Of a stretch of 64,000 bases of DNA, positions 1,955-47,687 are shown in pieces. The stretch is taken from NCBI GenBank assembly GCA_000092065.1, contig CP000588.1; one strand, 5' to 3'. The DNA is from Ostreococcus lucimarinus (lineage: Eukaryota). Position 1 is the stretch's first letter; each line of letters starts with the position of its first letter. The translations under genes and the position numbers were made by a program. The notes under the pieces were generated by a model. It saw only the letters and a list, made by a program, of their open reading frames with translations. It did no database searches and was not told the DNA's origin.

Positions 1955-3409
1955 TCAGATGACGAGCGCCATGCTAATCTTGTGCTCGCGGCAGAGCGTC
2001 GCGGGATCTCGAACTACGCACACGCGCACGCGCTTCTTGTCTCCGGCGTTATACACGCGATATATATGATAATCCACGCTTGGTTTCGTCGCAAAATCCC
2101 ATTCCCAAGGTGAAATCTCAAATGCGTTTTTATCGTCGAAACGCGTCGACTTGACCTCTACGAAAGTCACGCGCCCAGTGGCAACGTCGGTGACTTTGAT
2201 GTCGTAAAAACTGTTCGTCTCGCCTTCCGCGTTCAACCACTCGACGAGATGATTCTCTCGCGCGGGGTACGATGCGAGTAGGTATTGATACACAAGCGCT
2301 TCGCCCCATCGACCGACGGCGCGCGTATCGCACGCGTCTACTTCTTCCCACCAAGGTACGAAACGCGAGACGCCTGGGATCGCGTCTTCGCCTCGGCTCG
2401 ATGCCTCCTTCGGCGCGCGCAACCTTCCTTCCCATTCGTAACGATCCTCGACCCGGAAACGAATTCCCGTCGACGCGTTCTCTTCGCGCGCCGCCGGTTC
2501 GTCGTCGACGCGCACGACGCTCACGCTCGGTGCGCGCTCTCGCTTGCCGCGCTTCGTTGCCGGCGCGTCCTCGTCGGCTCTCTCGTCGACGACGTCTGCG
2601 CCCTCCTCCTTCTCTACCTCCTCCTCAAAACATTTCGCGCGGTACTTCGAACCTCCCATATGCAACATCGCGTACTCTGCCATCACTGTCGCGCGCTCGC
2701 TCGCCGACAGCTCGTCCATGATCGTCTCCACCGCCTTGCGCGCCTTGCCGAAGGATGGCTTCCAAACCGTCGTCGCCGACGACCCACCCGCCAACGTCTC
2801 GTACACCTTCCTCAGCGCGTTCTTCGTCTCCTCGCGCGTCGGTTCGACCAACTTCGGCGTGTTCAATCGCCGCAACCGATTCCCCGCGCGCGCCGCGCGT
2901 TTCGCTGCGATCGCCGCCTCCGAAGCCGCCGCCTCCGCTTCGCTCGCCGCGCGCCTCTCTCGCGCCAACGTCATCGACTCCGCGTGTCTCTCCGCCATCG
3001 CCGACACGCGCGCGTAAAACGCATCATCACCACCGCTCCCATCGCCATCGCGCCTTTCGTCGCCATGGCGTCGCGTCGCCTTCGCGAACGTCCATCGTTC
3101 GCCGCGCTTCGCCGGCGGCGCGCCCGCCGCCGCCAATCCCTCCCTCGTCGCCCGCAGCGCGTCCACGTCCAGCGCCCGAGAGAAATCCTCCAGCGCCACG
3201 TCGCGCGCGTCCGGCAGCGGTATTTCCTCGCTCTCCGTCGCGCGCTCGGCGCGTTCGCCCGCGGCGCGCGTGAACGCGCGCAGCGCGTGCGTCAAATCCG
3301 CCACCAGCTCATCCCTCGTCCCGGTCGATTTACGCGCGAACCACGCCTTGGCGTACGTCTCCGCGATGTCCATCAGTCGAGGATTCGGTCTCGACGCCTC
3401 GCGCGCCAT
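1955..3409 (-). CDS. DUF3883-domain protein (NO VEIN-like C-terminal restriction-endonuclease-like fold) with long charged N-terminal region
   Basis: C-terminal block GRWGEALVYQYLLASY...NSFYDIKVTDVATGRVTFVEVKSTRFDDKNAFEISPWEWDFATKPSVDYHIYRVYNAG matches the DUF3883 pattern (YDI...EVK(S/T)T...F.(L/I)S..E.......Y.(I/L)YRV). Start set at ATG 3407-3409 (MAREASRPNPRLMDIAETYAKAW); the Arg-rich track extension to 4189 overlaps the importin gene and is rejected. Confidence 0.55.
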   Translation of the reverse strand: MAREASRPNPRLMDIAETYAKAWFARKSTGTRDELVADLTHALRAFTRAAGERAERATESEEIPLPDARDVALEDFSRALDVDALRATREGLAAAGAPPAKRGERWTFAKATRRHGDERRDGDGSGGDDAFYARVSAMAERHAESMTLARERRAASEAEAAASEAAIAAKRAARAGNRLRRLNTPKLVEPTREETKNALRKVYETLAGGSSATTVWKPSFGKARKAVETIMDELSASERATVMAEYAMLHMGGSKYRAKCFEEEVEKEEGADVVDERADEDAPATKRGKRERAPSVSVVRVDDEPAAREENASTGIRFRVEDRYEWEGRLRAPKEASSRGEDAIPGVSRFVPWWEEVDACDTRAVGRWGEALVYQYLLASYPARENHLVEWLNAEGETNSFYDIKVTDVATGRVTFVEVKSTRFDDKNAFEISPWEWDFATKPSVDYHIYRVYNAGDKKRVRVCVVRDPATLCREHKISMALVI

Positions 3410-3637
3410 CGCGGCGTCCGCGCGCGTCGCGCGTCGCGCACTGCGACGCGTTTGAAGATTCAAAAGTGACTCCACGCGTTCAAACGGCGTCGACTGCGCG
3501 GCAGTCCACGGCGCGTGCGCGTCCGCGCGCGCGCATCGCGACGCTCGGGACGATCGGTCGCGTTCGCGAGCGCGTTCGCGAGCGCGCGCGGGGCGCGATT
3601 CGGTCGAGGCGCGACGCGAACGCTTCGGGACGTCGAC

Positions 3638-6600
3638 ATGCGGGCGGATGAAGTCGCGCGGTGCCTGGCCGAGACGCTCTCGCCCGACGCCGTCGCGCGC
3701 GCCGAGGCGCAGCGCGCGATCGAGCGCATGGGAGGCGAACCGGGGTTCGCGGAGACGCTGGCGTCGATCGCGCTGCGCGGCGTCGAGGGCGCGGTGGTGG
3801 ACATCAGCACGAGACAGCTGAGCGCGGTGCTGCTGAAGAAACACGTGCGAGAACACTGGAACGCGCTGGATGAAAGGTTCGTCGCGCCGGAATTGACGGA
3901 AGCGGAGAAGCAAGGGTTGAAAACAGTGCTCCCGAAGGGACTGGCGGATGAGTCGAGCAAGATGCGCACGGCGTTCGCGGCGGGGATCGCGCAGGCGGCG
4001 GCGAGCGACGGCGCGATTTGGGACGAGCTGACGACGACGTTGGTGGAAGGAATACGAGCGAAACGATCGAGGTCGGAGGTTTTGGGGTGCTTGAAGTGTT
4101 ATGAGATTATTGCGGGGGAGATTGACGCGAAGGATGTCGCCACGGTGGGGCCGACGTTGTTTCCAGAGTTGTTGACGCTGGCGAGGCACGGAGAGGACGG
4201 CGCGCTACGGAGGCGAGCGGAAACGGCGTTTTCGTCGACAGTGAGCGCGTTGACCACGCTCACGGGGACGGAGCAAAAGGAAATGCGAGACATGTTGTTA
4301 CCGTATTTGCCCACGTGGTTGGAGACCGTAGCGATCGCGTTGGAGGGAATGCCGAATCCGAACAATTTCGACGCGTTGGCTTCGACCATGGCGGCGCTCA
4401 CGAGTCTCGCGCTCGCGGTGCAGTACTTTACCAAGCCCGCGGGCGAGGCGCTGATGCCGGCTTTATCCCGTGGGGCGATAATGTTTCACACCATAGCGCC
4501 AGTTTGGGCGAAATACTCAGAGGAGACGGATCACTTGGATCCGGGCATGGATAGCGACGGCGACACGGTGAGTTTCGAGGCGGTGGTCACAGAACTCCTG
4601 GAGCTCGTCATCAACATCGCGGAGCAGCCTAAGTTGAATAAGCTGCTCGAGCCGAATTTAGCGGATACGTTGTACGTCACGATGGGTTACATGACGATGA
4701 GCTCATCGCAAGAGGAGATGTGGATGGATGATCCGAACCAGTTCGTCGCGGACGAGGACGACGATTTCGGCAATGTGCGTGCCGCGTGCGGTCTCATGCT
4801 TGATTCTCTCGGAGAAAGATTCGGCGTAAAGGCGGTCGCTGCGCTCTGGAACGCATCAAATAGACGATTGGCGGAGTCCATATCGGCGCAACAAACCGGT
4901 GACTCGATGTGGTGGCGACCGCGAGAAGCGGCGCTCCTCGCCGTGGGCACGATGAACGAGGTCGTCTTGTCGAGCCTGGAGCGCGCGCAAGAAAAGGGCA
5001 AACCCGCACCTTTCGACATCGCCGCTTTCATGAAAACGGTGATTGAGAACGATTTGCACGAGAGCACGGCGGCGTCGGCGCCGTTCTTGCGTGGCCGAGC
5101 GTTGTGGGTCACGGCTCGCCTATCGAGCGGCGTGCCGACGGAGATGGCGGATGCCATTCTCAGAGCTTCGGTAAGTTCGCTGGCGCCCGGTTTAGCGCCA
5201 CCACTGCGTATTGGTGCGTGCCGCGCGATCGCTGAGTTTTTACCGATCGCGAAGAAGGAAGTGACGACTCCGTACATTGGTGAAATTTACAAAGGCTTGG
5301 GCAATTTGCTCGTCGACGCCGGCGAAGAGACTCTGCATCTCATTTTAGAAGCCATGCTCGTGCTCATTAAGGCTGACTCCGACGCTGCAGCGGCGTGGTT
5401 GAGCGCACTCGCGCCGGCGGTGGTGAAAATATGGGCGGAGTACGTCCGAGATCCCTTGGTGAGCGCAGATACCACCGAGGTGTTTGAGGCGCTCGCGGAG
5501 ATTCCTGCGTGCCAGGCGCAGTTGCACACCATGCTCGTGCCGACGCTTTCGCACATACTCGCATCGCCGAGCGAACAACCTGAAATGTTAGTGGAGGCGA
5601 CGCTCGATCTATTGACAATCATTCTTCGCCCGGCGTCGCCTGAGACGGCCAAGGCTACGCACGACGTGTGCTTCAAGTACGTGTGCGGTCTCATCATGCA
5701 GAGCGACGACGCCGGCGTGATGCAGGGTGCGTCCGAGACGTTACGCGCATTTCTTCGCGCGGGAAAAGAGAACATGCTCGAGTGGGGTAGTGGTGACCCG
5801 ACCGTGGGCGGTGGCGACGTGTTGCGCGCGATGTTTGAAGCCGCGTCGCGCTTGTTGGATCCAAATTTGGAGGACAGCGCAAGTCTGTACGCGGCACCTT
5901 TGCTGTGTCAAATGCTTCGTCGTTTGCCGACCAAGGTGGGCCCGGTGCTTCGCGATATCACGGCTGCGGTCGTGGCGCGCTTGCGCTCTTCAAAGCAGCC
6001 CAATCTGTCGGCGTCGTTGTTGACGGTGTTCGCGCGCATCGTGCACGTGGACGCCAACGCGTTCATCGAGCTCTTGATGTCGCTTCCGAGCGGCGGTGAC
6101 GAGCCGAACGCGTTCGATTTCGTCATGCGACAGTGGTCAGAGAAGCAATGCGATGTACACGGTTCGTTTGACATCAAGTTGACCACGACCGCGCTCGGTT
6201 TGCTTCTCAACACGCAGAGTCCAGCGTTGCACGCCGTCGTCGTCAAGGGCCAGCTCGTGGAGACGCCCGCGGAGAGCGGCCGCATTCGCACGCGCGCGCG
6301 CGCTCAAGCCAACGGCCCAGAAGTCTGGACCCAAATCCCACTCTCCGCCAAAATAGTCGAACTCTTAGCCGACGTCCTCATCGAGTACGCCGAAGGCATG
6401 GCCGGCGCCGAAGACGACGAAGACGAATGGGAGGAGGAGCGCGACGACGACGAAGACGACCCCGACGACGCCGCAGACGACGACGACTTCACCGGCGAGG
6501 AAAAGGAATTCACCGGCGACTTATTCGAGCGTCTTCTCATGCGCGGCGGTCTCGACGCGTTCGATCCCGACGACGCCGACGAGGCCGAGGATCCCGTGAA

Positions 6601-6733
6601 CGACATCGACGTTCGCGCCTTCGTCGTCGGCGGCTTTCGCGCGCTCCACGCATCCGGCGTCCTCGCCCCGCTCGCGCAGTCCATCGCCACCAGGCACCAG
6701 CGCGCCATTCACGACGCGCTCACGCATCAGTAA
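3638..6733 (+). CDS. IPO9: importin-9 (importin-beta family nuclear import receptor)
   Basis: Importin N-terminal region MRADEVARCLAETLSPDAVARAEAQRAIERM. Internal NQFVADEDDDFGNVRAACGLMLDSL...MWWRPREAALLAVGTM and C-terminal RTRARAQANGPEVWTQIPLSAKIVELLADVL followed by an acidic tail all align with human IPO9 (NPQQFVEDEDDDTFSY..., [23 protein letters not shown]...). First ATG 3638; the track extension from 3515 is Arg-rich 5' sequence. Confidence 0.85.
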   Translation: MRADEVARCLAETLSPDAVARAEAQRAIERMGGEPGFAETLASIALRGVEGAVVDISTRQLSAVLLKKHVREHWNALDERFVAPELTEAEKQGLKTVLPKGLADESSKMRTAFAAGIAQAAASDGAIWDELTTTLVEGIRAKRSRSEVLGCLKCYEIIAGEIDAKDVATVGPTLFPELLTLARHGEDGALRRRAETAFSSTVSALTTLTGTEQKEMRDMLLPYLPTWLETVAIALEGMPNPNNFDALASTMAALTSLALAVQYFTKPAGEALMPALSRGAIMFHTIAPVWAKYSEETDHLDPGMDSDGDTVSFEAVVTELLELVINIAEQPKLNKLLEPNLADTLYVTMGYMTMSSSQEEMWMDDPNQFVADEDDDFGNVRAACGLMLDSLGERFGVKAVAALWNASNRRLAESISAQQTGDSMWWRPREAALLAVGTMNEVVLSSLERAQEKGKPAPFDIAAFMKTVIENDLHESTAASAPFLRGRALWVTARLSSGVPTEMADAILRASVSSLAPGLAPPLRIGACRAIAEFLPIAKKEVTTPYIGEIYKGLGNLLVDAGEETLHLILEAMLVLIKADSDAAAAWLSALAPAVVKIWAEYVRDPLVSADTTEVFEALAEIPACQAQLHTMLVPTLSHILASPSEQPEMLVEATLDLLTIILRPASPETAKATHDVCFKYVCGLIMQSDDAGVMQGASETLRAFLRAGKENMLEWGSGDPTVGGGDVLRAMFEAASRLLDPNLEDSASLYAAPLLCQMLRRLPTKVGPVLRDITAAVVARLRSSKQPNLSASLLTVFARIVHVDANAFIELLMSLPSGGDEPNAFDFVMRQWSEKQCDVHGSFDIKLTTTALGLLLNTQSPALHAVVVKGQLVETPAESGRIRTRARAQANGPEVWTQIPLSAKIVELLADVLIEYAEGMAGAEDDEDEWEEERDDDEDDPDDAADDDDFTGEEKEFTGDLFERLLMRGGLDAFDPDDADEAEDPVNDIDVRAFVVGGFRALHASGVLAPLAQSIATRHQRAIHDALTHQ

Positions 6734-7202
6734 CGCAAATCTTCATTCGCGGTCTCACTCGCGTTCGCCAGCCCTCGTTCGCCTTTGATTCCGCTCCGTT
6801 CGTCGTCGCCGCGCCGCGCCGCGCCGTCCCGCTCGAGCGTCGTCGCCATCCCTCGACCCGTCGTCGTCACACGTCGACCGCGCGCCGACCGACCGCGCGT
6901 CTGCGAGACGCGAACGCGCGCGCGCGTCGTCGTCGTCGTCGCTCGCGCGCGATGCCGCGCGCGCGCGACGCGCGCGGCGTCGCGAACGTCGTCGACGCGG
7001 CGACGTCGCTCGGCACCGCGTCGACGCGCGCGGCGCATCGCGGGGCGTTCGCGGCGGCGCGCGGCGACGCGCGGCGATGGTCGATCGTCGCGCGCGATCG
7101 GGGCGTCGCGCGCGCGCGCGAGACGGGCGGAGACGCGCGCGCGCGCGCGAGGGGGACGGAGACGCGCGCGGCGAGCGGGACGCGCGGGTTCGCGGCGAGC
7201 GG

Positions 7203-7203
<1 letters not shown>

Positions 7204-7242
<39 letters not shown>
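7204..7242. repeat. (ACG)13 trinucleotide microsatellite immediately 5' of an in-frame ATG of the LETM1 gene (poly-Thr if translated)
   Basis: Perfect 39-nt ACG run seen directly in the sequence, followed by ATG at 7243. Confidence 0.95.
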
Positions 7243-7243
<1 letters not shown>

Positions 7244-9411
7244 TGCGGACGTGGAATGGATGGTGTGAGCTGCGCGTCGAACGCGCGGGCGAAGGGAGAC
7301 GCGCGCGCGAGGCGTGGACGGTGACGGCGCGACGCGGGTTCGCGGCGGAGCCGTTGAAGGAGTCGGCGGCGGAGGACGAACCGACGGAGGAGGTCAAGGT
7401 CGACATCGCCGCGCTCGATCGCGCGCGAGCGGAAATATCGAAGTTGCACAGAGAACGACAGCTAAAGGCGTGGGAGCGCATGTACGCGTCGGCGGTGGGT
7501 GGGGTGACGTACGCGGCGTCGTTCGGGCCTTGGTTCGTTTCGCTGAGTAAAATGTCGCGCGCAGAGTGGAAGAGTGGCATCAAGCACAGCTGGGGACACG
7601 TCAAGGATGAGATGCATCACTATTGGTCCGGCGCAAAGCTGCTCTGGGTCGAAGTGAAGATCGCGTCGCGGTTGTCTTGGCGGTTGATGAGCGGATCGGA
7701 GTTGTCGAGGCGAGAGCGAAAGCAGCTGACGCGCACGACGGCGGACGTCTTTCGTTTGGTGCCTTTCGCGGCGTTCGTGTTGATTCCATTCATGGAAGTC
7801 TTCTTACCCGTAGCTCTGAAGCTGTTTCCGAACATGCTTCCCACGACGTTTAGAAACGATCTGAAGCACGAGGAAGAGTTGAAGAAGAAGCTCAAGGCGA
7901 AGCTCGAGGTGGCGAGATTTTTACAAGACACGGTTCGAATGATGGCCAAAGGCTTGAAGCACTCGCGCGACGGTGTCACGCGCGATCGCGCCGATGATTT
8001 GTACGTTTTTATGAAGAAAATTCGCTCCGGCGCCAAGGTGACGAACGAAGACATTTTGAAGTTTTCAAAGCTCTTCAACGACGAATTCACGTTGTACCAA
8101 GTCAATCGCGCGCAGTTGGTGAACATGTGCAAGTTTGTCGGTATCGCGCCGTACGGCACCGATACTTTCTTGCGTTTTCAGCTTCGAAACAAGCTTCGTG
8201 AGATCAAGAACGACGATAAGATGATCTACTTCGAGGGATTGAGCAATATGACGACGAGCGAACTGCGAAGCGCGGCGCGCTCGCGCGGGATGCGATGGGA
8301 GTGCGAGCGGGAAGATTTAATCAAGCAACTCGAGGATTGGCTCGAGTTGAGCCTGAAGAATAAGCTCCCATCGACTCTCCTACTTCTTTCGCGTGCGTTT
8401 GTCATCACAGCTGAGTCCAGCGGCGAGGATGCCAAGACGAAGGTGTTCCAAGATATCACCGACACCTTGGCTTCGTTGCCCGAGGACGTCATCACTTCCG
8501 CGGCGGTTGACGAAGGTTTGGCCACGCATACGCCAACGAAGAAGGAAGATTACACGAAGAGAATGGAGTTCTTGAAGCGCGAAGAAGAAATCATCGCGGA
8601 GGAGCAAAAACAAACGGAAGCCGTGCAGGAAGAAATCGTGCCGGCGCCGGAGACGACGGAAACAGAAACAGTCGACAAGGCGGCGGAGGAGATGGAGGGC
8701 GCGCCTTCGACGAAGCAAGCGGCCGCGCCTTCCGCCGACGCATCAGGCGATGATGAAGAGAAGGCCATTCGCAATGAAGAAAAGGCGACGTACGAACGCG
8801 AGAAGCGCGCAAAGCGCGCCGCGCAGCTCTCGCGTTTGCTAACCATGGTTTCCGACACGTCATCCGTCTGCGTTGAACGCACCGAGTTGATGATGCTCGT
8901 CAAGAAGGGTGTAGACGCATACGCCGACCGCGTCGAAGAAGCGCGATGCGCCGCTGAAGAAATCGCCGCGGACCAGGGCGCCATCGAGCACCTCACCGCG
9001 GAAGTGGACGAAGAGGCTCGACTCTCGCATCAGCTCGCCGACCAAGTCAGCGCTCGCGTGGACAAGATGTTGCAATCCGCGAGCAAAGACATTGAAGAAG
9101 TGGAGAAGCGCATCGGCGACAAACTCCGCGTCCTCGACGCGGATTGCGATGGTAAGATCACCATGCAGGAGCTGTTACGCGTGCGCGACGTTCTCGGCGC
9201 CGATCAAATCGACGAACGCGACGAAATCGAGTTGGTGAACATTCTCAGCGGTCTCATCAAGGACGACGGAACCATCGCCGTGGAAGATTTGAGAAAGCTC
9301 ACCAGCGACATCATCTCCACCGAACACTTGGAAGACGTTCAAACGGACGACGACGCGGACATCGAGGCGACCTCGAGCGCGAGCGCCGCGTCCTCGGATG
9401 TCCCCGCGTAG
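7243..9411 (+). CDS. LETM1: LETM1/Mdm38-family mitochondrial inner-membrane protein with C-terminal coiled-coil and EF-hand
   Basis: [51 protein letters not shown] is near-identical to the human LETM1 core ([49 protein letters not shown]). C-terminal EF-hand DADCDGKITMQELLRV. Start chosen at ATG 7243 immediately after an (ACG)13 repeat (gives about 722 aa); an upstream in-frame ATG at 6952 is possible. The track start 6427 overlaps importin-9 and is rejected. Confidence 0.8.
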
Positions 9412-36155: not shown

Positions 36156-39100
36156 TTAATACCAAGGCGCCCAAATCGCTGCGGAACGACTGACGTTGCG
36201 AATGTTAAGAGCGGCATCGACCAGGTGTAAGACAGCCTTTTGAACGCTCGGTACCGTGTCCGACGTGTCGGGGAGTACCGGGGTCGGGGCGATGATCGGT
36301 AACCTCCGAAGCACCTCCTGTACATTGGCGCGCGCCATGTTTTTAATCTCCGACGGCGACGGGCTCACGGGAGGGGTGTCGCCGCCCATGCGACGCCACG
36401 GCCAAACCATGAGTTGATCGCGAAAGAATAATTCAAGATGGGCCTCTAAGTCAGCTTCGGGCGCTGTGCACGCTTGCGCGGCGGACGCCATGGAGGCGAC
36501 AAAGTCACCCTTGACGCCAAACGGTGTGAAGAACGTGTGCAAGTTTCGCGTTAGGCGGAACGGCACGGGTTCGATGTACTCGACAATACCTTTTTGATCA
36601 AACGCCGGGTGGAAGTCAAGCATGAATATCTTGCCAGTATTCTTGGCGAACATGATCTTGTTCGGTGTTCGGCCGCCAATGCGTAGGAGCGCGGACAAGA
36701 AGCTTGACATTGCGAGCTGCTGCGAAAGTTGACGCTTAAACGTCCACAAGTGCGAGCTGCTCGGAAGTGTCTTGTACATGTACTGCGAGAAGATATTTTC
36801 TGTCACGTGCTTTTGCGTAATCTCCATCAGGGCTTTCAGGCGAAGCTCCAGTACCTCTTCGGTGCCCGTAACTTCTCCCAGAATCGCAGGGTCGAGCGCG
36901 GCCTTGAAGAGCGTAATCGGTAAGTCTGCTTCGCGGCCGTAACGCGCGCAGTTGGCGTCGTACACCTCGGCATACGTGCCGTTTGCATCGTCGTCTTCGA
37001 GCAAGCGCACTTGTGGCCATACTGGAACGATGGCTGGGGTGTAATAGCACATGTTTCGACGTCTCGTCTCTGTGTGCTTGGCCAAAACTCCATTCAATGT
37101 GGACAAAAGTTGCACCATGCGCTCCTCACCGCGCGCCGCCGGTGTTAGCGACGTCTGGACCAAGAATTGCTTGGACGAACCATCCGTGCCAAGGAACTCT
37201 AAGCGTCGTAAGCAGTTTCCGTTCCGTCGCACGACGTGCACATCGGCACCGATACGCTCGAGCTTGACAAAGCGATCGGTGACGCCAAACGTCAAGTCGC
37301 CCGAATACTGCCCAGGAATTTCAATCTCGTGAAACGTGACATTTCTGAGCTGGTCGGATTCAGCCTCGAGACGCAACGTCGCCGGCAATCGATCCTCAAC
37401 ATCGTTCAGTAAGCGTTGTTTCCAAGCCTTAAGCTTCACCATGAGTTCCGCAACCGTCGTCGGAAATGTACTTTCCTCCGGATTCAATTCGCGTTCGTAA
37501 CTCGCTTTGTATTCTTCGACGAAATCTGCGTGCTTCGCCGAAGTATCCGCGCTGAAGCAGGCCTTACACACGCCTATGAGTTCCTTCTTGAAGCTCTCCG
37601 GAACTTCGCCGGTCGTCGCCGCTGGATACTTGTAGCATCGGTGCAACAACGTGTAGACGACAACTAATAACCGTTCTTCAGGCGTACACGCAAATTTCGT
37701 ACCGAGTTCGCTAAGTAAGACTTCGAGCTCGCCGACCAAGTTGCCGTGTCTGGTTCGAATGTGTTCCATGATTTCTTTCGCCGCTTCGAAAGCCCAGTTG
37801 GCATCCTTCGCGCGCGATGCAGCCGCGGCAACATCGGGTGGTAAAGGTGTGCCTGGGGCGCTGGATGACTTCTGAGTAGCGCCACTCTTCTCGGCAATTG
37901 TGCGCGCAGTTTGAGTCGCTCGCGCCGCCGAGTCTCTTCGCTCGAGTAAGCACGTGCGCAATTGGTAGTAAACCGCTTGCGGGTGCGCGGCGGCGACGTC
38001 TTTGAGAATTGCCAAAGCATACGCTTGTTCCTGATGTGCGAGAGACAGAAGTAGCTGTGGAATCCAAGGAATCCAAACCCAAGTGGGCAAAGCGTCGAGA
38101 TGACGCACGATGGCGAGGCTGATAGGCTCGGGATTTACGTCAAACGCGAGCATTTGAATCACATGAATCAACTGGTGTCGATTCTCGTGAACGTTGTGCT
38201 TGACGGCTTGCAAGTAGCAGGTCGCTGTTTGTTGCGCAATGTTTGAAATAGAGCCGTCATCACCGCGCATTCGACAAAACTTGCCCCACGACAGCCACGA
38301 CTCGGCGCGTTGCTTGCACAACGACACAGAAGTCGAATACGACGCGTGCGCAGCGTCGTAATCTTCAAGCTGCTCTTGGAACTTTGCTCTCAGGCGGAAT
38401 AACTCAGCCTTTTGCGGTGGTGAGAAGAACTCCAGACTCGCAGATTCAAGGAGATTGATTCCAGTGATGGCTTCATTCTCAAACGCGAGGTACGCTTCGC
38501 ATTGTTCTCGAAGCTTTGAGAAAGCCTCTGAAACTTCAACTTGACCTTGATGACGCGACAAGATGTTCAGCGCAACCTCAGGCAAGCGCTGTTTACGCGC
38601 CGCTCGTGCAAACTTATTCAAACTCCACGCGCGCTCACGTTGACCGAGCTGATCGAGCTGTTGCGTTACTTGCAACATCGCGGGATTTTGCTCGCCGATT
38701 TGCTTTGCTGCGTGCGTCATGATGTTGTGCATGTTTCCGCGCCACATGAGGATCTCGCTCCACCACGGCACCGGATCCCATTCGTTGGGTGTGCGCAGAC
38801 GCCAAGTTTCCATGATGTCCTGAACCAACGTGCGATTGTTCGTGATCCCTTGCACGCCTCGGCGTTGGGTATTGGAAAGTTCGAGCAAGATGCGCGTAGA
38901 TTCTTGTACTTCCGCGATGGCGTTGAACATGTGAAGCGACGGAATGTGGCACGTTGAACCGGTCTCTGGAAGACGCCACCATCGATCAAGCGATGACTTA
39001 ACGGCGTTCGCCCAGTGCTGTTCAGCTTCGCGTACGCGTCCACTGACAAGTGAGGCGAACGCGCGAACTGTGGTGATTTCGGGGGTTTCCTCGATTTCAT

Positions 39101-42100
39101 TCAGCGTGCCGCTCGGCATCAGATCTTTCACACCCGCCCAATCTGAAAGTCGCCACATGCTCTGCACCATCAACTCGCTGTGCTCAACAGTTCGACTGAA
39201 GTCAGAAATCAAGTCCCATTGATTCAGTTGTTTCGCTGAATTCAGCCATTGCGTTTCCCACAGACACATCTCCGTCTTCGACACTCCCGGAGCCTGCCCA
39301 GCGGTGGCGAGCTGGATACCTTTGAAGAAGACATCTTGCGCATCTTGCCAGTGTCCGTGCTGCACGAGAGAGAGACCTGCTCGTGTGACATCGGACTGGC
39401 AACGCTGCATCCATAAGCCAACCAAAACGTCTTGCTCGTTCAACAATCGGTAAAGCTCGCTGAGAGCGTCGAAGCATCTAGCCTCTTGCGGATAGCGCAC
39501 GACGTGATTCTCGAGCAAAGCGATGGCGGTGTGCCATGCGTTGAACGTCTTACCAAGGAACTTGCTCAACTCGCTTGGAATCTTCAGCTGCGGCTGAGAA
39601 AGAGATATTCCTTCCAGTAGAGCTTGAATGACGTTTGGACGCACTGCGGCCTGACGAAGGTGCGATTCTTTACTGAGCAAACCAATCATCGGTTTGGCAA
39701 GTTGCAACTGCTCTTCGCGTTGCAATGTCGCCCAAACGATGGGGAAGATCAAGACCCAGAGATAATACGCAATGTGTGCGTTCCTCGTCGCCACTTGTCG
39801 AAGCGGCGACATTAAGTCATTTACGCGAATCTGCGCCTTTTCGTGGAGGAACTTCGCGTGGCGCTTGATCAAATCGTCGAGTTCGGCGGGATTTGCCTTC
39901 GCGTTTTTTGATTTAGCCGGAACGGGTAGAGGTTTCTTTGTCTCTGAATCAATCGGCAGAAGCGGGGTGATCAACGCACTGTTCGGAGCAAGCATGATTC
40001 TTTCATCCTCGGCGAGCGTGCTGAGAATCAAATCCAGGCCTTGCATCAACCAGAAAGTGTCCGCCATAGCATCCCAATCTTGAATGGTCAAGATATACTG
40101 CAAGCGCTGAAAGAGCGACTTGCCGATGGCGTCGTGATAAAGTGCAAAGAACTTCTTACGGAGCTCCGGCCTTCGAGTGCGGAGACCAAGCAGGTGAGTA
40201 CGTTCGACTTTGAGGAACACTTCAGTGCGCACGGCTGGGTCGTGTTTGCCCTCGGGTGCACAGAGTTTGTAAATCGCCCCCAAAAGCTTTTCTTCCCATG
40301 CTTGCGTTTGCGTGATGGCGAGGCCCATGCGCGTCAACTGTGCAAGCTTGGACAAGAACAAGACGGTTTCCTTTGCGTTCAAGCTACCGACACGTGTATC
40401 GTTGTCTTCGGGAGCGCCGCCTTCGCCCAAGGCTAAGTCGTCCGTCCAAGTAACCATAGCGTCGAGAATAGCCATGAGAACGTTACCGTGCGTTGACTTG
40501 TCATTAATGAGTTGTAGCAGTAAACGCAAGAAAATCTGCTTCTGATCTGAGCCAGCCGCAATGACTCGCTGAGATAAGATCTTGATGCACTTAGCCATGC
40601 AGTAGGCAACGCTACCGTACTCTGGTTCGAGCACTTCAGGGGGCGCTTGACCACGCTTCGGATGCGCAGCCTGAAGCTCACCCGCGGCGGACGCAGTATT
40701 CAACTCGTGCGTCATGCGCGCGAGCACCTTCATCAAGTTTGGCAGATACGTGTCAATCTTAGAAGCGGCAAAGACGGCTTCGGATTCAACCACCGTGAGA
40801 ATGCCAGCCAATGACGTGTTTGCTTGGTCGTTATTCGGCGAACTCTTTGAAATGATGGCATCTTCCGTGCATTTTACGTAAAACACCCCGATATGCTGCC
40901 TCAATTCTTCGATATCAGCGTCGTGCTTGCCGTTCGAATCGCCGTTACACTTGAGTATCTCACCGATGACTTCACCCAAAAGCCCATGCGCTTCACGGCT
41001 CGCAGACGAGTAGGAAGGTTCGATGAGGCGAAGAGTTTGTTGAATGCTTTCTGTGACGAACTCGTAATCGGGCGTCTTCAATGCGCACTTGAGAACGGAA
41101 AGACCCATGATGAGGGTAGACGTGGGATCGCGTTGGGCTTGATTTGCCAATGTCAAGAGCTTGTCGATGAAAGTGAACTTGATGCGCACAGACGGCCACA
41201 TCGCCAACGCCTTTGAGAGGAGATCTAAAGTTCGCACATTGAGAACTTGTGCGTCTTGGTCCTTACCTTCTCCAGTGATGAAAGTCATTCGAACGAGGAA
41301 GTTGACGATGATTTCAGCCATCGCCGGCGACGTTTCAAACTCCTTTTCTTCATCTTGATCGTCGGCCGATTTGGGCATCGATTTGAGCTTTTCTGTATCC
41401 GGTAAGTCACTAACCATTTCTTCGGTAGCTTCCTCTTCTTCCTTGGTCTGCTTCGCCGAGCGCGAAGCGCGCTTTGAACGTCCCGGTGATTTGCTTTCGG
41501 CTTCTTCCTTCTTCGACTTTTTGGTACCCTTCTTTCCGCGACGAGTCGGCGTCGTGACTTCCTCGTCTCTTTCTGGACTCTCCGCCGCCTTGCGCTTTCC
41601 AGTCGTCGACGGCTCAGCTTCGTTCGATCCTACTCCAGTGATTCTATCATTCTCCCAGCTAATGATGAGTTCGACCAAATCGACCGAAAGCACTCGGTTA
41701 GAATGCGAAGAGCTCGTGGGCAAGCCCAAACGCGAAAGCAAGTTTACCATCTGCCCAACAAACTGCGCTCGTGATGAGTAAAACAACTTGGAATGCCGCA
41801 CAATCAAGTTCCAAATGTGAACGAGCTGCGGAAGCGAATGACCGTCTTCGATTAAGCTCTTCTTGGTGTATCGAATCCAAATCGGGTGCTTGTGCTCACC
41901 TGGTTGAAGACGCAAAGGCAACGCTGGAGTGAGAGCGTCAAGCGCCTCGGTAACTAATGATTTTTGCTCTGGTTGATATGCCCGAAGTAACGCAACGAAG
42001 ACTTGCAATATGATCTTTTCTGGCGCTTGATACGCCTGTAAAAAGTAACTGATGTTGACGAAGGCCCATTGCTTGCTCGAAGAATCTTCACGCTTCAAGT

Positions 42101-45100
42101 GATTCCATCCGAACTTGATGAGTTCCTTACGATGATTAACCAAAGTTTTGGGAACGTGACGAATAAGCAACGTGCTTAGTTGTAGCAACTGAATAAGAAG
42201 GGACTCGTTGTACAACGTGGTGTTGTCACCATCGGAGGGTTCGAGCACATCATCGACCAGTTCGTTCACGAATTCGTCAGTGACGACTTCAAGAGCCTCA
42301 CTTGACGCCTCTCCGTCTTCGTCGGCACAGCCGACGAGAACTTTCTCAAGCATTGGATTTATCAAAACCTTGAGCGCGGTGACGAGAACATCCGGATCGG
42401 CTTCGCCGCCGGCTTCGGCTTGCTCGCGAAACTCGGTTAAAAATTGTGTCAAGACTGCGTTGCGCTCTGCCGGTGTGTACACGTCGACGACTTCAGACTT
42501 TATGAATTCTCGGACGAAGGTGTAATCCACCACGCTACATTTGCAGAGCACTGGCATGATCTTAAACAGTATTTGAACCTGAGAACGATCGCCTTTGACG
42601 ACAGAAAGGAAGCACTTCACGAGATATTTGCTTTCCATCATTGCCGGAAGCGAGTTTGTATATCCGTTGAGCAAACGATCGGCCCGTTCTTCGCTGTCCC
42701 AACATTCGTCTAGTTGCGTCAATATGGCGCTCTCCTCGGAGAGCCACTTTGGCATGATTTTAACAATCGTAGATAAGAGCTTCAAGCCATTGTAGTAGGC
42801 AAGCTGTGGGTCTTTGTTCTTCTGCAAGTCTTTCATCGCGATCTTGTCGTGTTCATCTAGTTCGCCATTGGCACCAAAGATCACACGCAACAGCTTGGAA
42901 GAAGTCGCGGTGAGCGCGTTCAGAAGTTCGGCGCCTTCAGATAACTTGAGAATCTTTACGAAGAGGGAGAAGTGTTCCGGCTGGTCCAGACGCGCCAAGA
43001 AGTACGCGATCGATTCTTTCGGATACTTGCACAGAAATTTCGTAAGCGGCACGGTGTAAAGGGAGTTGGCCTCGCTGTACACACTTTCAGGGGGCATCGT
43101 CGCCTCAATCGCCATCACGTCGCGCACCAAAGGCTTGATGAAATCAAACGGCGTAAGCTTCGGCTCGTTCGCTTTTGCATCACTTTTACCGTCGCGAAGC
43201 TTCGGAAGTAAGTGAAACAAGTTGACGATCGACGCGATCAACTTCGCATCTTTCGGAGACTTTCGAATCTGTCCTGGTACACTCGGCGCGCTTGCGTCGA
43301 GCTCCAGCCAATACTTGATGTGCTCCAGCAACTTCTCACCCAGTGTCGGGCTGAACCACTCAGCTAAAAGTTCGAGTAAGTACTCCAATGCTTCTAACAG
43401 CGGAATTGTCAGCTTTGAGAGATGTTGCAAGTTCATCAAAATCGGGCTCACGGATTGCTTGAGCGTGTTCTTGTTCATGTGAGGCTTGACTTCAACCAAA
43501 CCACGCTTTGCGATAGCCACGATGTCTCCATTACGAGACGTCAAGCTCGTGAAGAGCACCGTCGAAATCCGCTCGCGCACAGCAACAATGTCGGCCGAGC
43601 TATCTGATTTTGAAAATTCAGGTGTGCTCAGGGCGGTACTCAAGACTTTCACGCACGACTGCCGAAGAGTGGACAGCGACTCGTTCTCTTGCGTCTCGAC
43701 GTTCAAAACTGTATTGTCATCACTCTCAGCGACAAGGAGCACAGCGTTAAAGAACGCGCCCGGGCTAGTTTGTACCGACATATCCTTCAATGGGATCAGC
43801 GATGGCGAACGAATCAAGCAAAAGTCGACAAACTTCACCAGTTGAATCTGGGCCAACACGTGTCGAGTCTGCAACGGCTTTTCAAGCAACACGGTCAAAT
43901 GTGACTTGGATTGCGACAAAATGCTTTCCATGGTAGTCGAGGTTCGCTCAGCGATCCCCAAAAGCGCTTTCTCGACCGCAGTACGACATGCACACGTGCT
44001 CGCTACGCTACGCAGTTCTTCAAGGAGAATTGACACACTAGCTGCAACGCCATCGCCGCTATCGCCTTCAATCACCGTCGGCGGCTCGCTTCCGCTCGGA
44101 ATGCTTCTCTCAATGATTCGCAAAAACACTTCTTCAGCTTCCTTTTTCTGCGTCATCGCGTACACTGGAAGTAGCTGAATCGCGCGCATTATCGCGGGAA
44201 GTATGTCGGGGAGACGAGACTTGAGGATAGACGTCGGCAAACTCTTGCACAATCTGTCCAAACCAGCAACACCGCCGATGATGCAGTGCGCTTCCTGTTT
44301 GTAGCAACAGTGGACCAATCGAGGCAGCAGCGCCTCAATAAAGGCTGCTAATTTAGGATAGGAACTCTCATCCACGTCCATCGTTTTCTTCTTCGACTTT
44401 TTCGGCGTCGGCTTTTTCTCCATCGTGTCTTCAGCGGCTTGAATCTCGTCAACTTCGTCTCGAGTTAAAATGAGCACCGCGTCGATAAAAGTACCTATCG
44501 TCTTCAAAGTTGCATTTAAGTGCACTTGCTTTGGAGATTCGAGCGACTTCATTAGCGCGTCTAAGAAGAGCGTCGTTTCCAAGATCTTGAGGTTCATCGA
44601 ACGCGGGCGATCGATTGAATCGTGATCCATTCTATCGGCCACAGGTTGCTCGGGCCGCACAGCGTTGCTAACGAACAACATGGCCATGTGCTCGCAAACG
44701 CTATCCATGAACGTCTCATCGGTTTCCTTCAAAGTTGGGTCGCATTCAGCAGCGATCACAGTGATGACCAACTGTTTGAAAACATTCTGCTCTGCCACAA
44801 GCTGACTCTTTGTTTTGTTACCTAATTGCGTCGAGCCCTCTGCGACGGTTGCAGAGTCAAACTTTTTCCCCCACCCGTTGGAAATTGCAGCTTCGATGGC
44901 ACTTTCTATTTGTTCTACAGACCCAGATAAAGCGTGGCCAGCGCTCAAGTTCAACGCGGAAATCAAGCACGTCCTAATAAAAGTCAACGCTTGGCGTCTG
45001 TGACGAATGAGTGCCTCGGACGCCTTGACGTTCGGGATCAGTGGCGTTGAAAGAATGTTCTGCATCAACACGATGCAACGATCCAAGGGGACCAGAAACG

Positions 45101-47687
45101 AAGTCTCTGGCTTGAACATCAAAATCATTCTCAAACCGTGCTCGGGATTACTTTTCGCATCCAACTCCAACGGACTTCTAAGAAACGCACGGTTGCGTCC
45201 ACCAAGTTTACCGATCAGTTGCATCGCCTTGGCGCCGAACGGCGACCCGCTCTGTTGAGGCTTGAGCATCGCCCACAACGCGAGCATCAACTCGGATTCC
45301 ACTTCGGCTATGCACGGGTCGAGAAACTCCGGATTCAATGAATCGACCCAGAACTCTAAAGTGCGTAGGCCTAGTAAGTTCAGTTCGTTTACTGGAGCAC
45401 GAAGCGCCTTACACAGCGGCGTCGCGAGCTTCGGTAAATGTGGAAGAATTGAAGACAGCCGCGCCGGCAGAATCAGGCACAACTCTACTACGGTGTCGTG
45501 TAACTCGTGCGGATCGGGTCCGTTCAACATCTCGAGCAAGCAGTCGAGACTGGCAGGCAAAATTGGTACGACTTCTCGGTAAAGAACGTCAAACTTGGCT
45601 TGCGCCATCGCTCGAAACAAATACCGAAGTAACCTGATGTACGCCGTAGGATTCTCGTGCTCCCGTATCGCCTGCAAGCATGATTCCATCATCGTGATGA
45701 CGTGCGAGCTCAGTACAGTTTCGCAGTTGCTATGCTTACTCACCGCATGAAGTAACAATGAGAAAAGCTTTAACACTAGCTGCGCTTCTTGTGACGATTG
45801 ATCGCTTAAGCACGACAACTTTTTCTCCAATAAGTAAGTCACAAACGCATCGGCGGCATACCGGCACAATTTCGCGTTCTGCAACAACAAATGGGGAACT
45901 TGTACCATCGTTGGCAGTTCTAACATTCCCGTGAAAAAGTGATCAAAGTGTAAGCAGATAATATCAACGAAATTTCGCGGTTCTAATACCGCCAAAGCTT
46001 CGGAAAAGTGCGTGCACATTTCTGTGCACTCCGTGCCCTTGAACAACTGCATGCACTTCACTCCGTTGCGAATAAATCCAGCCGAGCGCCTGAGCTCCAT
46101 GCTATCCAGTCCCAAGTCGGTGGGTTCAGAACCATTAAAGTTCGTAATACTCCACAGAAGTGTCTTCATACCGATTGTCAATGTTTTGATGATGGCTTTG
46201 CTATCTGAAAGCGATCTGAGCTTCTCGTGACTAGGGAGCTCTGGATCCTTCTCATCGTTAGCAGCGGCGTTCTTTGCGCCGCTCGCCGTTTCATCAACTT
46301 TTTTGCTCGCCGTTCCTTCAGCGCTGTCTACTTTAGGTGGCCCTGCAGCTTTGTCAGTTTTCGCCACCTTTGCCTTGATAGCTTTCTCTAAATCGTTCGC
46401 AGTCTCTAAGAGCTCGGGGACATTCGAACGCAGCGTTCTAAACTTTGCTACAGTGGCGTACATGATGTGCACTAAAAGATGCCGAGCCTGCTCCGCTTGG
46501 GTCTTCTCACTGCGCATGCGGAATATGGATTCTACAAGATGGTGCATCAGCCTCGCGCATGTCATGTGCGTCGACATTGGCAAAGTAGTATCTTGCATGT
46601 TCCGACTAAAGATGTGCACAGCTCGGCGAATCTGCGGTAGCGTAAGCTCCGCCTTCATATGATGCACTAGTTCAGCGAGGAACGAGTAAGCCAGCGGTCG
46701 CAAACTTTCAATGCACATTCGCCCCGTACCGACGAGGATATCATCATCCATCATCAAATCCAAATGCGCAAAGAACCGTTTGCAAAATGCAGGAACGCTC
46801 AGCACGTGGCGCGTGGCGACCAAGAGCTCCTTGCGCGTCGCTACGACATCTGGACAAGTCTTCAGCAACGAGACTATGGCGTCAGAGACCGCTTCTTGGT
46901 ACGGCTCCACTAGAGACGCGCTACCTCGAAGAAGATACGCGATGAAGCTGATCGTTTTCACTTGAGCCGCTTTCAGGTCGCAAAATATCGTTCGCATCGT
47001 CGGCGACATTGAGTCAGAATCGTGGCCTTCCAAGCTTGTAAACTTCACCATGAGCGGTATCATCGCCGATACTTCAGTCTGTATATTGCGATTGTAGAGC
47101 TGATAAAGCAACATGACGATGAGTGGACACTCTGTCATCACTTTAAACGACTCCAACGCCGGTATCTCACATGGATTCGACGGCTTCTCTTTCCGCCCGC
47201 GCTGCTTCACCGTCCCGCCCAGAATGTTCTCAACGCACTCCTCTGCCGAGGTGTATACGTCGGAAACGAACGCTAAAAACGGCGAGCGACGCTCATCCAT
47301 TGAAGGTCTAAAGTTTCGGTGCAAGTCAAAGATGATTCGCAAACATAGCAGCGCGTTCTTCTCGTTCTCCGACGCCAACGGGTCCAAAGCCAAATTCAAC
47401 AGTTCCTGCTCATACGGCCGTAGGACCTCGTTAAACGGCAATCTATTCAAAATCTCGTAAATGACATGACGCAGTGCATTCTCTTCGTCATCTACCAGCG
47501 TCGGTTCCGTCTTCTTCGTTAGGATCTCTTTGAAAATCGGGAAATAGCTCTTGAGAAAGTGCACGTATTCGCTCGTGTGCACGACTTCAATACCATCTCG
47601 CACGTTCGTCGCGATCTCTATCTGCTCGGAAGTCGACGCTGCGTTTAGCAATCGCTGTGCCTGCGCTCCATACGCCGTCTGCGCCAT
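36156..47687 (-). CDS. TRRAP: TRRAP/Tra1 (transformation/transcription domain-associated protein; HAT-complex scaffold, PIKK-like pseudokinase) as a single 11.5 kb exon
   Basis: 3,843-aa uninterrupted ORF from ATG 47685-47687 (MAQTAYGAQAQRLLNAAS...; track start 47741 is TTG). HEAT-repeat body. FAT-region signatures (...PNVIQALLEGISLSQPQLKIPSELSKFLGKTFNAWHTAIALLENHV...). PI3K-like kinase-like domain (RRNGNCLRRLEFLGTDGSSKQFLVQTSL...RGEERMVQLLSTLNGVL). FATC-like tail ending AIWAPWY. Confidence 0.9.
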   Translation of the reverse strand: MAQTAYGAQAQRLLNAASTSEQIEIATNVRDGIEVVHTSEYVHFLKSYFPIFKEILTKKTEPTLVDDEENALRHVIYEILNRLPFNEVLRPYEQELLNLALDPLASENEKNALLCLRIIFDLHRNFRPSMDERRSPFLAFVSDVYTSAEECVENILGGTVKQRGRKEKPSNPCEIPALESFKVMTECPLIVMLLYQLYNRNIQTEVSAMIPLMVKFTSLEGHDSDSMSPTMRTIFCDLKAAQVKTISFIAYLLRGSASLVEPYQEAVSDAIVSLLKTCPDVVATRKELLVATRHVLSVPAFCKRFFAHLDLMMDDDILVGTGRMCIESLRPLAYSFLAELVHHMKAELTLPQIRRAVHIFSRNMQDTTLPMSTHMTCARLMHHLVESIFRMRSEKTQAEQARHLLVHIMYATVAKFRTLRSNVPELLETANDLEKAIKAKVAKTDKAAGPPKVDSAEGTASKKVDETASGAKNAAANDEKDPELPSHEKLRSLSDSKAIIKTLTIGMKTLLWSITNFNGSEPTDLGLDSMELRRSAGFIRNGVKCMQLFKGTECTEMCTHFSEALAVLEPRNFVDIICLHFDHFFTGMLELPTMVQVPHLLLQNAKLCRYAADAFVTYLLEKKLSCLSDQSSQEAQLVLKLFSLLLHAVSKHSNCETVLSSHVITMMESCLQAIREHENPTAYIRLLRYLFRAMAQAKFDVLYREVVPILPASLDCLLEMLNGPDPHELHDTVVELCLILPARLSSILPHLPKLATPLCKALRAPVNELNLLGLRTLEFWVDSLNPEFLDPCIAEVESELMLALWAMLKPQQSGSPFGAKAMQLIGKLGGRNRAFLRSPLELDAKSNPEHGLRMILMFKPETSFLVPLDRCIVLMQNILSTPLIPNVKASEALIRHRRQALTFIRTCLISALNLSAGHALSGSVEQIESAIEAAISNGWGKKFDSATVAEGSTQLGNKTKSQLVAEQNVFKQLVITVIAAECDPTLKETDETFMDSVCEHMAMLFVSNAVRPEQPVADRMDHDSIDRPRSMNLKILETTLFLDALMKSLESPKQVHLNATLKTIGTFIDAVLILTRDEVDEIQAAEDTMEKKPTPKKSKKKTMDVDESSYPKLAAFIEALLPRLVHCCYKQEAHCIIGGVAGLDRLCKSLPTSILKSRLPDILPAIMRAIQLLPVYAMTQKKEAEEVFLRIIERSIPSGSEPPTVIEGDSGDGVAASVSILLEELRSVASTCACRTAVEKALLGIAERTSTTMESILSQSKSHLTVLLEKPLQTRHVLAQIQLVKFVDFCLIRSPSLIPLKDMSVQTSPGAFFNAVLLVAESDDNTVLNVETQENESLSTLRQSCVKVLSTALSTPEFSKSDSSADIVAVRERISTVLFTSLTSRNGDIVAIAKRGLVEVKPHMNKNTLKQSVSPILMNLQHLSKLTIPLLEALEYLLELLAEWFSPTLGEKLLEHIKYWLELDASAPSVPGQIRKSPKDAKLIASIVNLFHLLPKLRDGKSDAKANEPKLTPFDFIKPLVRDVMAIEATMPPESVYSEANSLYTVPLTKFLCKYPKESIAYFLARLDQPEHFSLFVKILKLSEGAELLNALTATSSKLLRVIFGANGELDEHDKIAMKDLQKNKDPQLAYYNGLKLLSTIVKIMPKWLSEESAILTQLDECWDSEERADRLLNGYTNSLPAMMESKYLVKCFLSVVKGDRSQVQILFKIMPVLCKCSVVDYTFVREFIKSEVVDVYTPAERNAVLTQFLTEFREQAEAGGEADPDVLVTALKVLINPMLEKVLVGCADEDGEASSEALEVVTDEFVNELVDDVLEPSDGDNTTLYNESLLIQLLQLSTLLIRHVPKTLVNHRKELIKFGWNHLKREDSSSKQWAFVNISYFLQAYQAPEKIILQVFVALLRAYQPEQKSLVTEALDALTPALPLRLQPGEHKHPIWIRYTKKSLIEDGHSLPQLVHIWNLIVRHSKLFYSSRAQFVGQMVNLLSRLGLPTSSSHSNRVLSVDLVELIISWENDRITGVGSNEAEPSTTGKRKAAESPERDEEVTTPTRRGKKGTKKSKKEEAESKSPGRSKRASRSAKQTKEEEEATEEMVSDLPDTEKLKSMPKSADDQDEEKEFETSPAMAEIIVNFLVRMTFITGEGKDQDAQVLNVRTLDLLSKALAMWPSVRIKFTFIDKLLTLANQAQRDPTSTLIMGLSVLKCALKTPDYEFVTESIQQTLRLIEPSYSSASREAHGLLGEVIGEILKCNGDSNGKHDADIEELRQHIGVFYVKCTEDAIISKSSPNNDQANTSLAGILTVVESEAVFAASKIDTYLPNLMKVLARMTHELNTASAAGELQAAHPKRGQAPPEVLEPEYGSVAYCMAKCIKILSQRVIAAGSDQKQIFLRLLLQLINDKSTHGNVLMAILDAMVTWTDDLALGEGGAPEDNDTRVGSLNAKETVLFLSKLAQLTRMGLAITQTQAWEEKLLGAIYKLCAPEGKHDPAVRTEVFLKVERTHLLGLRTRRPELRKKFFALYHDAIGKSLFQRLQYILTIQDWDAMADTFWLMQGLDLILSTLAEDERIMLAPNSALITPLLPIDSETKKPLPVPAKSKNAKANPAELDDLIKRHAKFLHEKAQIRVNDLMSPLRQVATRNAHIAYYLWVLIFPIVWATLQREEQLQLAKPMIGLLSKESHLRQAAVRPNVIQALLEGISLSQPQLKIPSELSKFLGKTFNAWHTAIALLENHVVRYPQEARCFDALSELYRLLNEQDVLVGLWMQRCQSDVTRAGLSLVQHGHWQDAQDVFFKGIQLATAGQAPGVSKTEMCLWETQWLNSAKQLNQWDLISDFSRTVEHSELMVQSMWRLSDWAGVKDLMPSGTLNEIEETPEITTVRAFASLVSGRVREAEQHWANAVKSSLDRWWRLPETGSTCHIPSLHMFNAIAEVQESTRILLELSNTQRRGVQGITNNRTLVQDIMETWRLRTPNEWDPVPWWSEILMWRGNMHNIMTHAAKQIGEQNPAMLQVTQQLDQLGQRERAWSLNKFARAARKQRLPEVALNILSRHQGQVEVSEAFSKLREQCEAYLAFENEAITGINLLESASLEFFSPPQKAELFRLRAKFQEQLEDYDAAHASYSTSVSLCKQRAESWLSWGKFCRMRGDDGSISNIAQQTATCYLQAVKHNVHENRHQLIHVIQMLAFDVNPEPISLAIVRHLDALPTWVWIPWIPQLLLSLAHQEQAYALAILKDVAAAHPQAVYYQLRTCLLERRDSAARATQTARTIAEKSGATQKSSSAPGTPLPPDVAAAASRAKDANWAFEAAKEIMEHIRTRHGNLVGELEVLLSELGTKFACTPEERLLVVVYTLLHRCYKYPAATTGEVPESFKKELIGVCKACFSADTSAKHADFVEEYKASYERELNPEESTFPTTVAELMVKLKAWKQRLLNDVEDRLPATLRLEAESDQLRNVTFHEIEIPGQYSGDLTFGVTDRFVKLERIGADVHVVRRNGNCLRRLEFLGTDGSSKQFLVQTSLTPAARGEERMVQLLSTLNGVLAKHTETRRRNMCYYTPAIVPVWPQVRLLEDDDANGTYAEVYDANCARYGREADLPITLFKAALDPAILGEVTGTEEVLELRLKALMEITQKHVTENIFSQYMYKTLPSSSHLWTFKRQLSQQLAMSSFLSALLRIGGRTPNKIMFAKNTGKIFMLDFHPAFDQKGIVEYIEPVPFRLTRNLHTFFTPFGVKGDFVASMASAAQACTAPEADLEAHLELFFRDQLMVWPWRRMGGDTPPVSPSPSEIKNMARANVQEVLRRLPIIAPTPVLPDTSDTVPSVQKAVLHLVDAALNIRNVSRSAAIWAPWY

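Follow-up and report, generated by a model that had tools for sequence, protein, structure and literature searches.

The gene considered here lies on the minus strand of a 64-kb stretch of DNA from Ostreococcus lucimarinus (hereafter the window), at positions 1955-3409, and encodes a protein of 484 amino acids (aa) that ends in a domain of the Pfam family NOV_C (PF13020), the current name of DUF3883. The coding sequence starts with the ATG at 3409 and stops with the TGA at 1955-1957. Its translation is identical over the full length to XP_001419297.1 / ABO97590.1 / UniProt A4S144 (P0046) of Ostreococcus lucimarinus CCE9901, and this is a real gene that was present in the databases before. The UniRef name of A4S144 is 'Protein NO VEIN C-terminal domain-containing protein', so that the NOV_C annotation is already public and the domain call adds nothing new. 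What is new concerns the rest of the protein, which is a conserved module without a Pfam model, always tied to an apparently active NOV_C domain and present in at least four eukaryotic supergroups. The gene and the main parts of its product are arranged as follows:

1955-3409, minus strand: intron-less coding sequence of the NOV_C protein, 484 codons and TGA stop, identical to O. lucimarinus XP_001419297.1
1958-2389, minus strand: predicted C-terminal PD-(D/E)xK nuclease domain, aa 341-484, with the NOV_C match (aa 369-462) at nucleotides 2024-2305
2390-2623, minus strand: acidic linker, aa 263-340, predicted disordered, isoelectric point (pI) 4.7, predicted local distance difference test (pLDDT) below 50
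2615-3409, minus strand: N-terminal conserved helical module (N-module), aa 1-265, a reduced form of the 338-position family profile

The open reading frame (ORF) stays open to 4189. A longer gene was nevertheless rejected, because the upstream in-frame part is an Arg-rich low-complexity stretch that runs into the beginning of the importin-9 gene, and because the orthologues and the RefSeq model use the same start Met. The orthologues in Bathycoccus and Micromonas likewise rule out a chance ORF in GC-rich DNA. With a GC content of 0.66, the gene region lies inside the range of the rest of the window. Long ORFs also run antisense to the gene, for example one of 394 aa at 2285-3469 (plus strand), and similar ones lie over many other genes; their Arg/Ala/Pro-rich translations are typical artefacts of DNA with 60-66% GC and are not genes.

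The NOV_C match covers profile positions 1-89 of 91 (E=2e-21, 76.3 bits against a gathering cut-off of 22.1) and assigns the protein to this Pfam family, as the first-pass annotation of this DNA had proposed. The DUF3883 motif quoted there is present and reads FYDIKV...FVEVKSTRF..NAFEIS..EW......YHIYRV. No second domain was found in the Pfam and NCBIfam scans, the latter being without any match, which agrees with the earlier statement that no ATPase is recognisable. Among PDB sequences, the protein and the two profiles, of N-module and C-domain, had only chance matches, for example antibody chains and LptE.

A model of the whole protein was built with AlphaFold2 on a 39-sequence family alignment. 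The confidence over the whole chain is moderate (pLDDT 71, predicted template modelling score 0.38) because the linker is flexible, and the model is confident for residues ~341-478, with block means of ~85-94. The predicted topology of the C-terminal domain comprises a helix at 362-380, strands at 387-391, 404-408 and 414-421, a helix at 434-440 and strands at 446-453 and 462-467. This order, alpha-beta-beta-beta-alpha-beta-beta, contains the PD-(D/E)xK core alpha-beta-beta-beta-alpha-beta, the restriction-endonuclease-like core that had been anticipated. The predicted fold and the motifs place the protein in the PD-(D/E)xK superfamily (Pfam clan CL0236), to which DUF3883 was attributed by Steczkiewicz et al. 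2012 (PMC3424549). The structural comparison of the modelled domain gave the following scores:

Hjc (1gef): 7.5
I-Ssp6803I: 7.4
R.SwaI: 7.4
Hje: 7.3
Sen34: 7.0
EcoRV: 6.8
FAN1 homologue (5y7g): 6.4
VRR-NUC: 6.3

The archaeal resolvases Hjc and Hje (PDB 1gef, 1ob8, 2wcw) share only 13-16% identity with the domain, and the likeness appears to be structural only. Hjc is a stand-alone dimer of ~120-140 aa, and the protein has no match to Pfam Hjc, so that it was not counted among the Hjc-type Holliday junction resolvases. Hjc was also the structure nearest to the AlphaFold model of the NOV_C domain of HmaA, the nuclease of the Hma system of Halomonas meridiana (PMC11232893).

The conservation of the active site was counted over 120 aligned family C-domains, taken from the first search and a representative library; each denominator is the number of sequences with a residue at that position. 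The codons of the residues concerned are:

2300-2302, minus strand: E370, in helix alpha1, part of the motif GRWGE; conserved as E in 117 of 117
2201-2203, minus strand: D403, where strand beta2 begins, part of the motif FYD; conserved as D in 117 of 117; the 'D' of PD-(D/E)xK
2150-2158, minus strand: E418-V419-K420, in strand beta3; E in 114 of 115 and K in 115 of 115; the 'ExK' of PD-(D/E)xK
2102-2104, minus strand: E436, in helix alpha2, part of the motif PWEWDF; conserved as E in 113 of 113

Each of the catalytic positions E370, D403, E418, K420 and E436 is at least 99% conserved over ~115 family sequences from distant eukaryotes. The active site thus appears to be intact, with its complete metal-binding and catalytic set, and all five positions are invariant or nearly so. 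D403, E418, K420 and E436 correspond to D1084, E1104, K1106 and E1121 of HmaA, the spacing of E436 fitting the fourth catalytic residue, E1121 (PMC11232893). The NOV_C domain at the C-terminus of HmaA nicks supercoiled plasmid with Mn2+, and both nicking and phage defence are gone in the D1084A/E1104A/K1106A/E1121A mutant (PMC11232893). YenY4I, a Mn2+-active modification-dependent restriction endonuclease, has DUF3883 as its catalytic PD-(D/E)XK domain (PMC6765204). Metal-dependent cleavage by NOV_C has been demonstrated only for these two bacterial domains (PMC11232893, PMC6765204).

The conservation of these residues bears directly on the first reading of the gene, in which the product would be a lineage-specific factor that has a degenerate nuclease fold and binds nucleic acid or serves as a scaffold without being catalytic. 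Many eukaryotic PD-(D/E)xK domains are inactive modules, a catalytic role of NOV_C in the plant protein NO VEIN has never been shown, and the basic character of the N-terminal half (pI 9.2) would suit a binding factor. On the other hand, catalytic residues conserved across very distant eukaryotes are the signature of a retained active site, which argues for an enzyme rather than a binder, and the family is not lineage-specific, as described below. A non-catalytic factor is accordingly regarded as quite improbable.

The non-nuclease part of the protein spans ~340 aa and is formed by the helical module (aa 1-265) followed by the acidic linker (aa 263-340). A charged, coiled-coil-like N-terminus of ~390 aa had been described for it: both the length and the uniform coiled coil have to be given up, and what stands is one helix of 55 residues rich in Ala, Arg and Glu. 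The N-terminal model is all-helical and contains no ATPase fold. Its main elements, with the basic cluster of the linker, are:

2864-3034, minus strand: Ala/Arg/Glu-rich helix of 55 residues, aa 126-182, pI 10.6, pLDDT 88-97
2624-2863, minus strand: compact four-helix bundle, aa 183-262, the best-conserved part of the N-module, pLDDT ~90
2534-2554, minus strand: basic cluster KRGKRER, aa 286-292, within the acidic linker; most family members have a K/R cluster at the same place

Before the long helix, the models place two helices at aa 10-56; these precede a short conserved acidic motif at aa 58-65 (SEEIPLP, the family motif DxxEIxL) and a stretch of poor conservation at aa 92-124. The long helix is a candidate coiled-coil or dimerisation element, or else a candidate basic helix that contacts nucleic acid. 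The bundle carries the motifs P-K-L-x-E-P (here PKLVEP), PSFGKAR and EYAMLHMGGSKYRAKCF; E245 and R257 are invariant and G252 is nearly so. The cluster KRGKRER is a candidate nuclear localisation signal. The identity between Mamiellales orthologues is 47-99% in the NOV_C domain, 35-88% in the bundle, 11-82% in the long helix and 7-70% in the first 125 aa, where it is 7-34% outside the closest Ostreococcus clade.

The distribution of this module was followed with the profile A3, which is made of 19 sequences and 338 positions and covers the N-terminal part only. Against 1.84 billion cluster representatives (clusters at 50% identity), A3 matched 406 proteins at E<=1e-3, 183 at E<=1e-10 and 71 at E<=1e-30. 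Of the 134 new matches listed, 81 end in the nuclease domain of the family. The remaining ones are shorter, with a median of 331 aa, and the longest of them that were inspected stop inside or just before GRWGE or end in apparently mis-called tails; they are therefore taken as truncated gene models. Full-length N-module proteins, among the matches listed, end in NOV_C, and the two modules appear from these sequences to be obligately associated. With the N-module profile, a word-indexed search through 5.8 billion proteins brought back known members only.

The family is defined here by A3 (DxxEIxL, PRLxxP, PSFxK, EYxMLHLGGxKYRAKxF) together with NOV_C at the extreme C-terminus, ending in ...LCLAI, and the O. 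lucimarinus protein, its seed, falls within this definition. In the first search, several Ostreococcus clades and Bathycoccus prasinos (XP_007513503.1) yielded orthologues of full length. Versions that are longer, at 590-820 aa, came from Micromonas commoda (XP_002503343.1), from the haptophyte Diacronema lutheri and from an MMETSP transcript; NOV_C is the sole Pfam domain in all of these homologues. Both modules also occur in the choanoflagellates Stephanoeca diplocostata and Didymoeca costata and in the labyrinthulomycete Hondaea fermentalgiana. Since choanoflagellates, a labyrinthulomycete, a haptophyte and all three Mamiellales genera have both modules, the architecture is conserved and taxonomically wide, and the combination of N-module and NOV_C appears to be a eukaryotic family undescribed so far. 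With 406 clusters matching the N-module profile, and the complete ones ending in NOV_C, the terms 'unusual' and 'lineage-specific' in the first-pass annotation no longer apply. The O. lucimarinus version is reduced: the close Ostreococcus orthologue P0002 aligns only from position 58 of the A3 profile onward, and Micromonas and other lineages have ~100-200 additional N-terminal residues.

The named matches among the 120 best listed for the family C-domain profile are from Phaeomonas, bivalves and rotifers. Short NOV_C-only proteins of 150-280 aa (P0393, P0395, P0420, P0431) lie near this profile and come from the bivalves Ruditapes and Mercenaria and the rotifers Didymodactylos and Rotaria.

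The protein can be compared with four known systems. The Arabidopsis protein NO VEIN (NOV / EMB2597, At4g13750), from which NOV_C takes its name, is likewise eukaryotic and has the C-terminal PF13020 domain in common with it; NO VEIN is nuclear, and the O. lucimarinus protein is presumed to be so. The plant protein NO VEIN, which acts in auxin-dependent patterning, has ~2,700 aa and includes a GHKL/sacsin-like ATPase region (see also PMC11232893), whereas the O. lucimarinus protein has 484 aa, no ATPase and an unrelated N-module. No land-plant sequence was seen among the 120 best listed matches of the family C-domain profile. Orthology with NO VEIN was rejected on these grounds, and the link that had been drawn to it holds for the shared C-terminal domain and nothing beyond that domain. 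The lack of an ATPase also sets the protein apart from Tiamat, a single-gene anti-phage system whose protein TmtA (PADLOC PDLC03972 and relatives) is matched by aa 357-478 at profile positions 1185-1293 of 1302 (E=4e-23). PDC-S36 was also matched in PADLOC, at the C-terminal nuclease end only. TmtA is prokaryotic and borne on defence islands; it is 1,300-1,650 aa long and has a large ATPase part at its N-terminus. The O. lucimarinus protein has no such part and matches only the last ~110 of the 1302 positions, and its gene is a eukaryotic nuclear one between TruB, importin-9 and LETM1, so that identity with TmtA was discarded.

In HmaA the nuclease is coupled to a helicase motor of superfamily 2 (Snf2), whereas the O. 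lucimarinus protein has no NTPase and carries an undescribed helical module instead. The closest design is that of YenY4I/McaZI (PUA/DUF3427 + DUF3883), in which a targeting domain is joined to a catalytic DUF3883 without an ATPase (PMC6765204). These enzymes are bacterial, and their PUA and DUF3427 domains, which read modified cytosines, are both missing from the O. lucimarinus protein. It is conceivable, although rather unlikely, that the family found in Archaeplastida, Haptista, Stramenopiles and choanoflagellates is ancient and represents the ATPase-less counterpart of Tiamat and Hma. In marine protists it would then be a nuclease directed against viral or mobile DNA, and the N-module would be a sensor or targeting domain of a new type.

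The preferred reading is that the protein is a nuclear, divalent-metal-dependent DNA endonuclease, a nickase or a structure-specific enzyme, with an N-module that targets and possibly dimerises it; this reading is held as probable, with considerable reserve. The NOV_C domain (aa 341-484) would act as a PD-(D/E)xK phosphodiesterase and conduct the catalysis, that is, divalent-metal-dependent cutting of DNA. The basic, all-helical N-module (aa 1-265) probably guides the nuclease to its substrate or partner, and the long helix may dimerise it. The flexible acidic linker would join the two modules and carry the basic cluster that resembles a nuclear localisation signal. The conserved position and the apparent vertical inheritance of the gene would suit a housekeeping function in the nucleus, for instance in DNA repair, recombination or chromatin maintenance, better than that of a mobile element or a defence island.

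Several points weigh against this proposal. The N-module shows no recognisable DNA-binding fold in Pfam, PDB and fold searches: no family recurs in the Pfam scan (E<=1) of all 19 N-module sequences, the N-module profile had no match among PDB sequences, and the Foldseek search gave nothing below E=2.9. The short basic motif is the only sign that points to nuclear localisation. Long single helices are often given a high pLDDT, which weakens the case for dimerisation via the long helix. A literature search by accession numbers returned nothing on members of the family.

The neighbouring genes give further information on the inheritance of the gene. Importin-9 (domains IBN_N, HEAT_IPO9_c and TPR_IPO11) is placed head-to-head with it, its first ATG being 228 bp away as had been stated before, and the TruB pseudouridine synthase gene is tail-to-tail with it across a spacer of 90 bp; a LETM1-like gene lies beyond importin-9 in the window.

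3410-3637, no strand assigned: divergent spacer of 228 bp between the NOV_C gene and importin-9 (coding sequence from 3638, plus strand); the head-to-head arrangement is kept in Bathycoccus

In Bathycoccus (metagenome contigs L001 and L002) the NOV_C gene is head-to-head with importin-9, followed by LETM1, the same order as at 1955-9411 of the window. In Micromonas (L003) it lies within 5 kb of TruB, with a Dus3L-like gene and an inosine-uridine nucleoside hydrolase gene between them. The Ostreococcus clades, Bathycoccus and Micromonas each have clusters of their own among the matches, and no clear paralogues were seen among the Mamiellales matches. In Mamiellales the gene thus appears to behave as a vertically inherited housekeeping gene and not as a mobile element or part of a defence island.

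The presence of genes for RNA modification among the neighbours, TruB in the window and TruB with Dus3L in Micromonas, can also be taken as a hint that the protein is an RNA endonuclease or an RNA-processing factor and not a DNA enzyme. Sen34/Sen15/EndA are among the fold matches, and a Leishmania DUF3883 protein, which is not known to belong to the family with N-module and NOV_C, is proximal to the transcription/splicing kinase CRK9 (bioRxiv 10.1101/2025.09.08.674917). However, the metal-dependent E/D/ExK site is of the type found in DNA-cleaving PD-(D/E)xK enzymes. The tRNA-splicing endonucleases use a metal-independent Tyr/His/Lys triad. The characterised NOV_C domains (HmaA, YenY4I) cut DNA, and gene neighbourhood has little functional weight in eukaryotes. 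A role on RNA is consequently judged improbable, and a DNA endonuclease is preferred.

The same nuclease chemistry could also serve immunity. In that case the enzyme would attack the DNA of viruses or mobile elements, with the N-module as a sensor, and would be a counterpart of Tiamat TmtA, HmaA and YenY4I/McaZI. Prasinovirus infection is heavy in Mamiellales. In PADLOC, the C-terminus of TmtA gives the best match, the characterised NOV_C nucleases are all anti-phage or restriction enzymes, the named members are scattered over distant eukaryotic groups, and the N-terminal part evolves fast: once the closest Ostreococcus clade is set aside, Mamiellales share 7-34% identity in aa 1-125. On the other hand, the gene has a stable size and no clear paralogues among the Mamiellales matches, its micro-synteny beside housekeeping genes is kept from Ostreococcus to Bathycoccus, and it is retained in highly streamlined genomes. 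The protein lacks an ATPase or helicase partner domain, and its nuclease domain is extremely conserved and not diversifying. No relative of the protein was found in the IMG/VR viral contigs searched, which gives no support for a viral origin or a viral homologue and also speaks against immunity. On this balance an immune function is unlikely, and the DNA endonuclease with a housekeeping role described above is retained as the preferred reading.

Given that it is genetically tractable and has a minimal genome, Ostreococcus tauri offers a clean system in which to ask for the role of an ATPase-less eukaryotic NOV_C nuclease. The answer bears on whether the nuclease domain of NO VEIN has catalytic meaning, and on whether eukaryotes have retained a domain best known from bacterial anti-phage systems to maintain the genome or to provide immunity.

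Some minor features of the window were also recorded. The spacer at 3410-3637 contains a 12-bp direct repeat, CGCGTTCGCGAG, present 2.3 times at 3559-3586. A cell-cycle box in the shared promoter was considered, as ACGCGT occurs there twice (3446 and 3474), and was dismissed: 64 copies are observed over the window against 65.8 expected, which is a chance frequency. The 5' part of the LETM1-like gene (ORF 6427-9411, plus strand) holds a perfect (GAC) repeat of 13.7 units at 7203-7243, which encodes a homopolymer run and is preceded by degenerate CG-rich repeats of 12-29 bp at 6940-7206. A scan of the 64 kb with ARAGORN gave no tRNA genes; protein genes, apparently without introns, lie close together on both strands of the window. 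One of these is Tra1/TRRAP, a single ORF of 3861 aa at 36156-47741 (minus strand) with the domains Tra1_central, Tra1_ring, FAT and PI3_PI4_kinase, and it coincides with the sole low-GC stretch of the window (0.50-0.53 vs 0.56-0.68 elsewhere).

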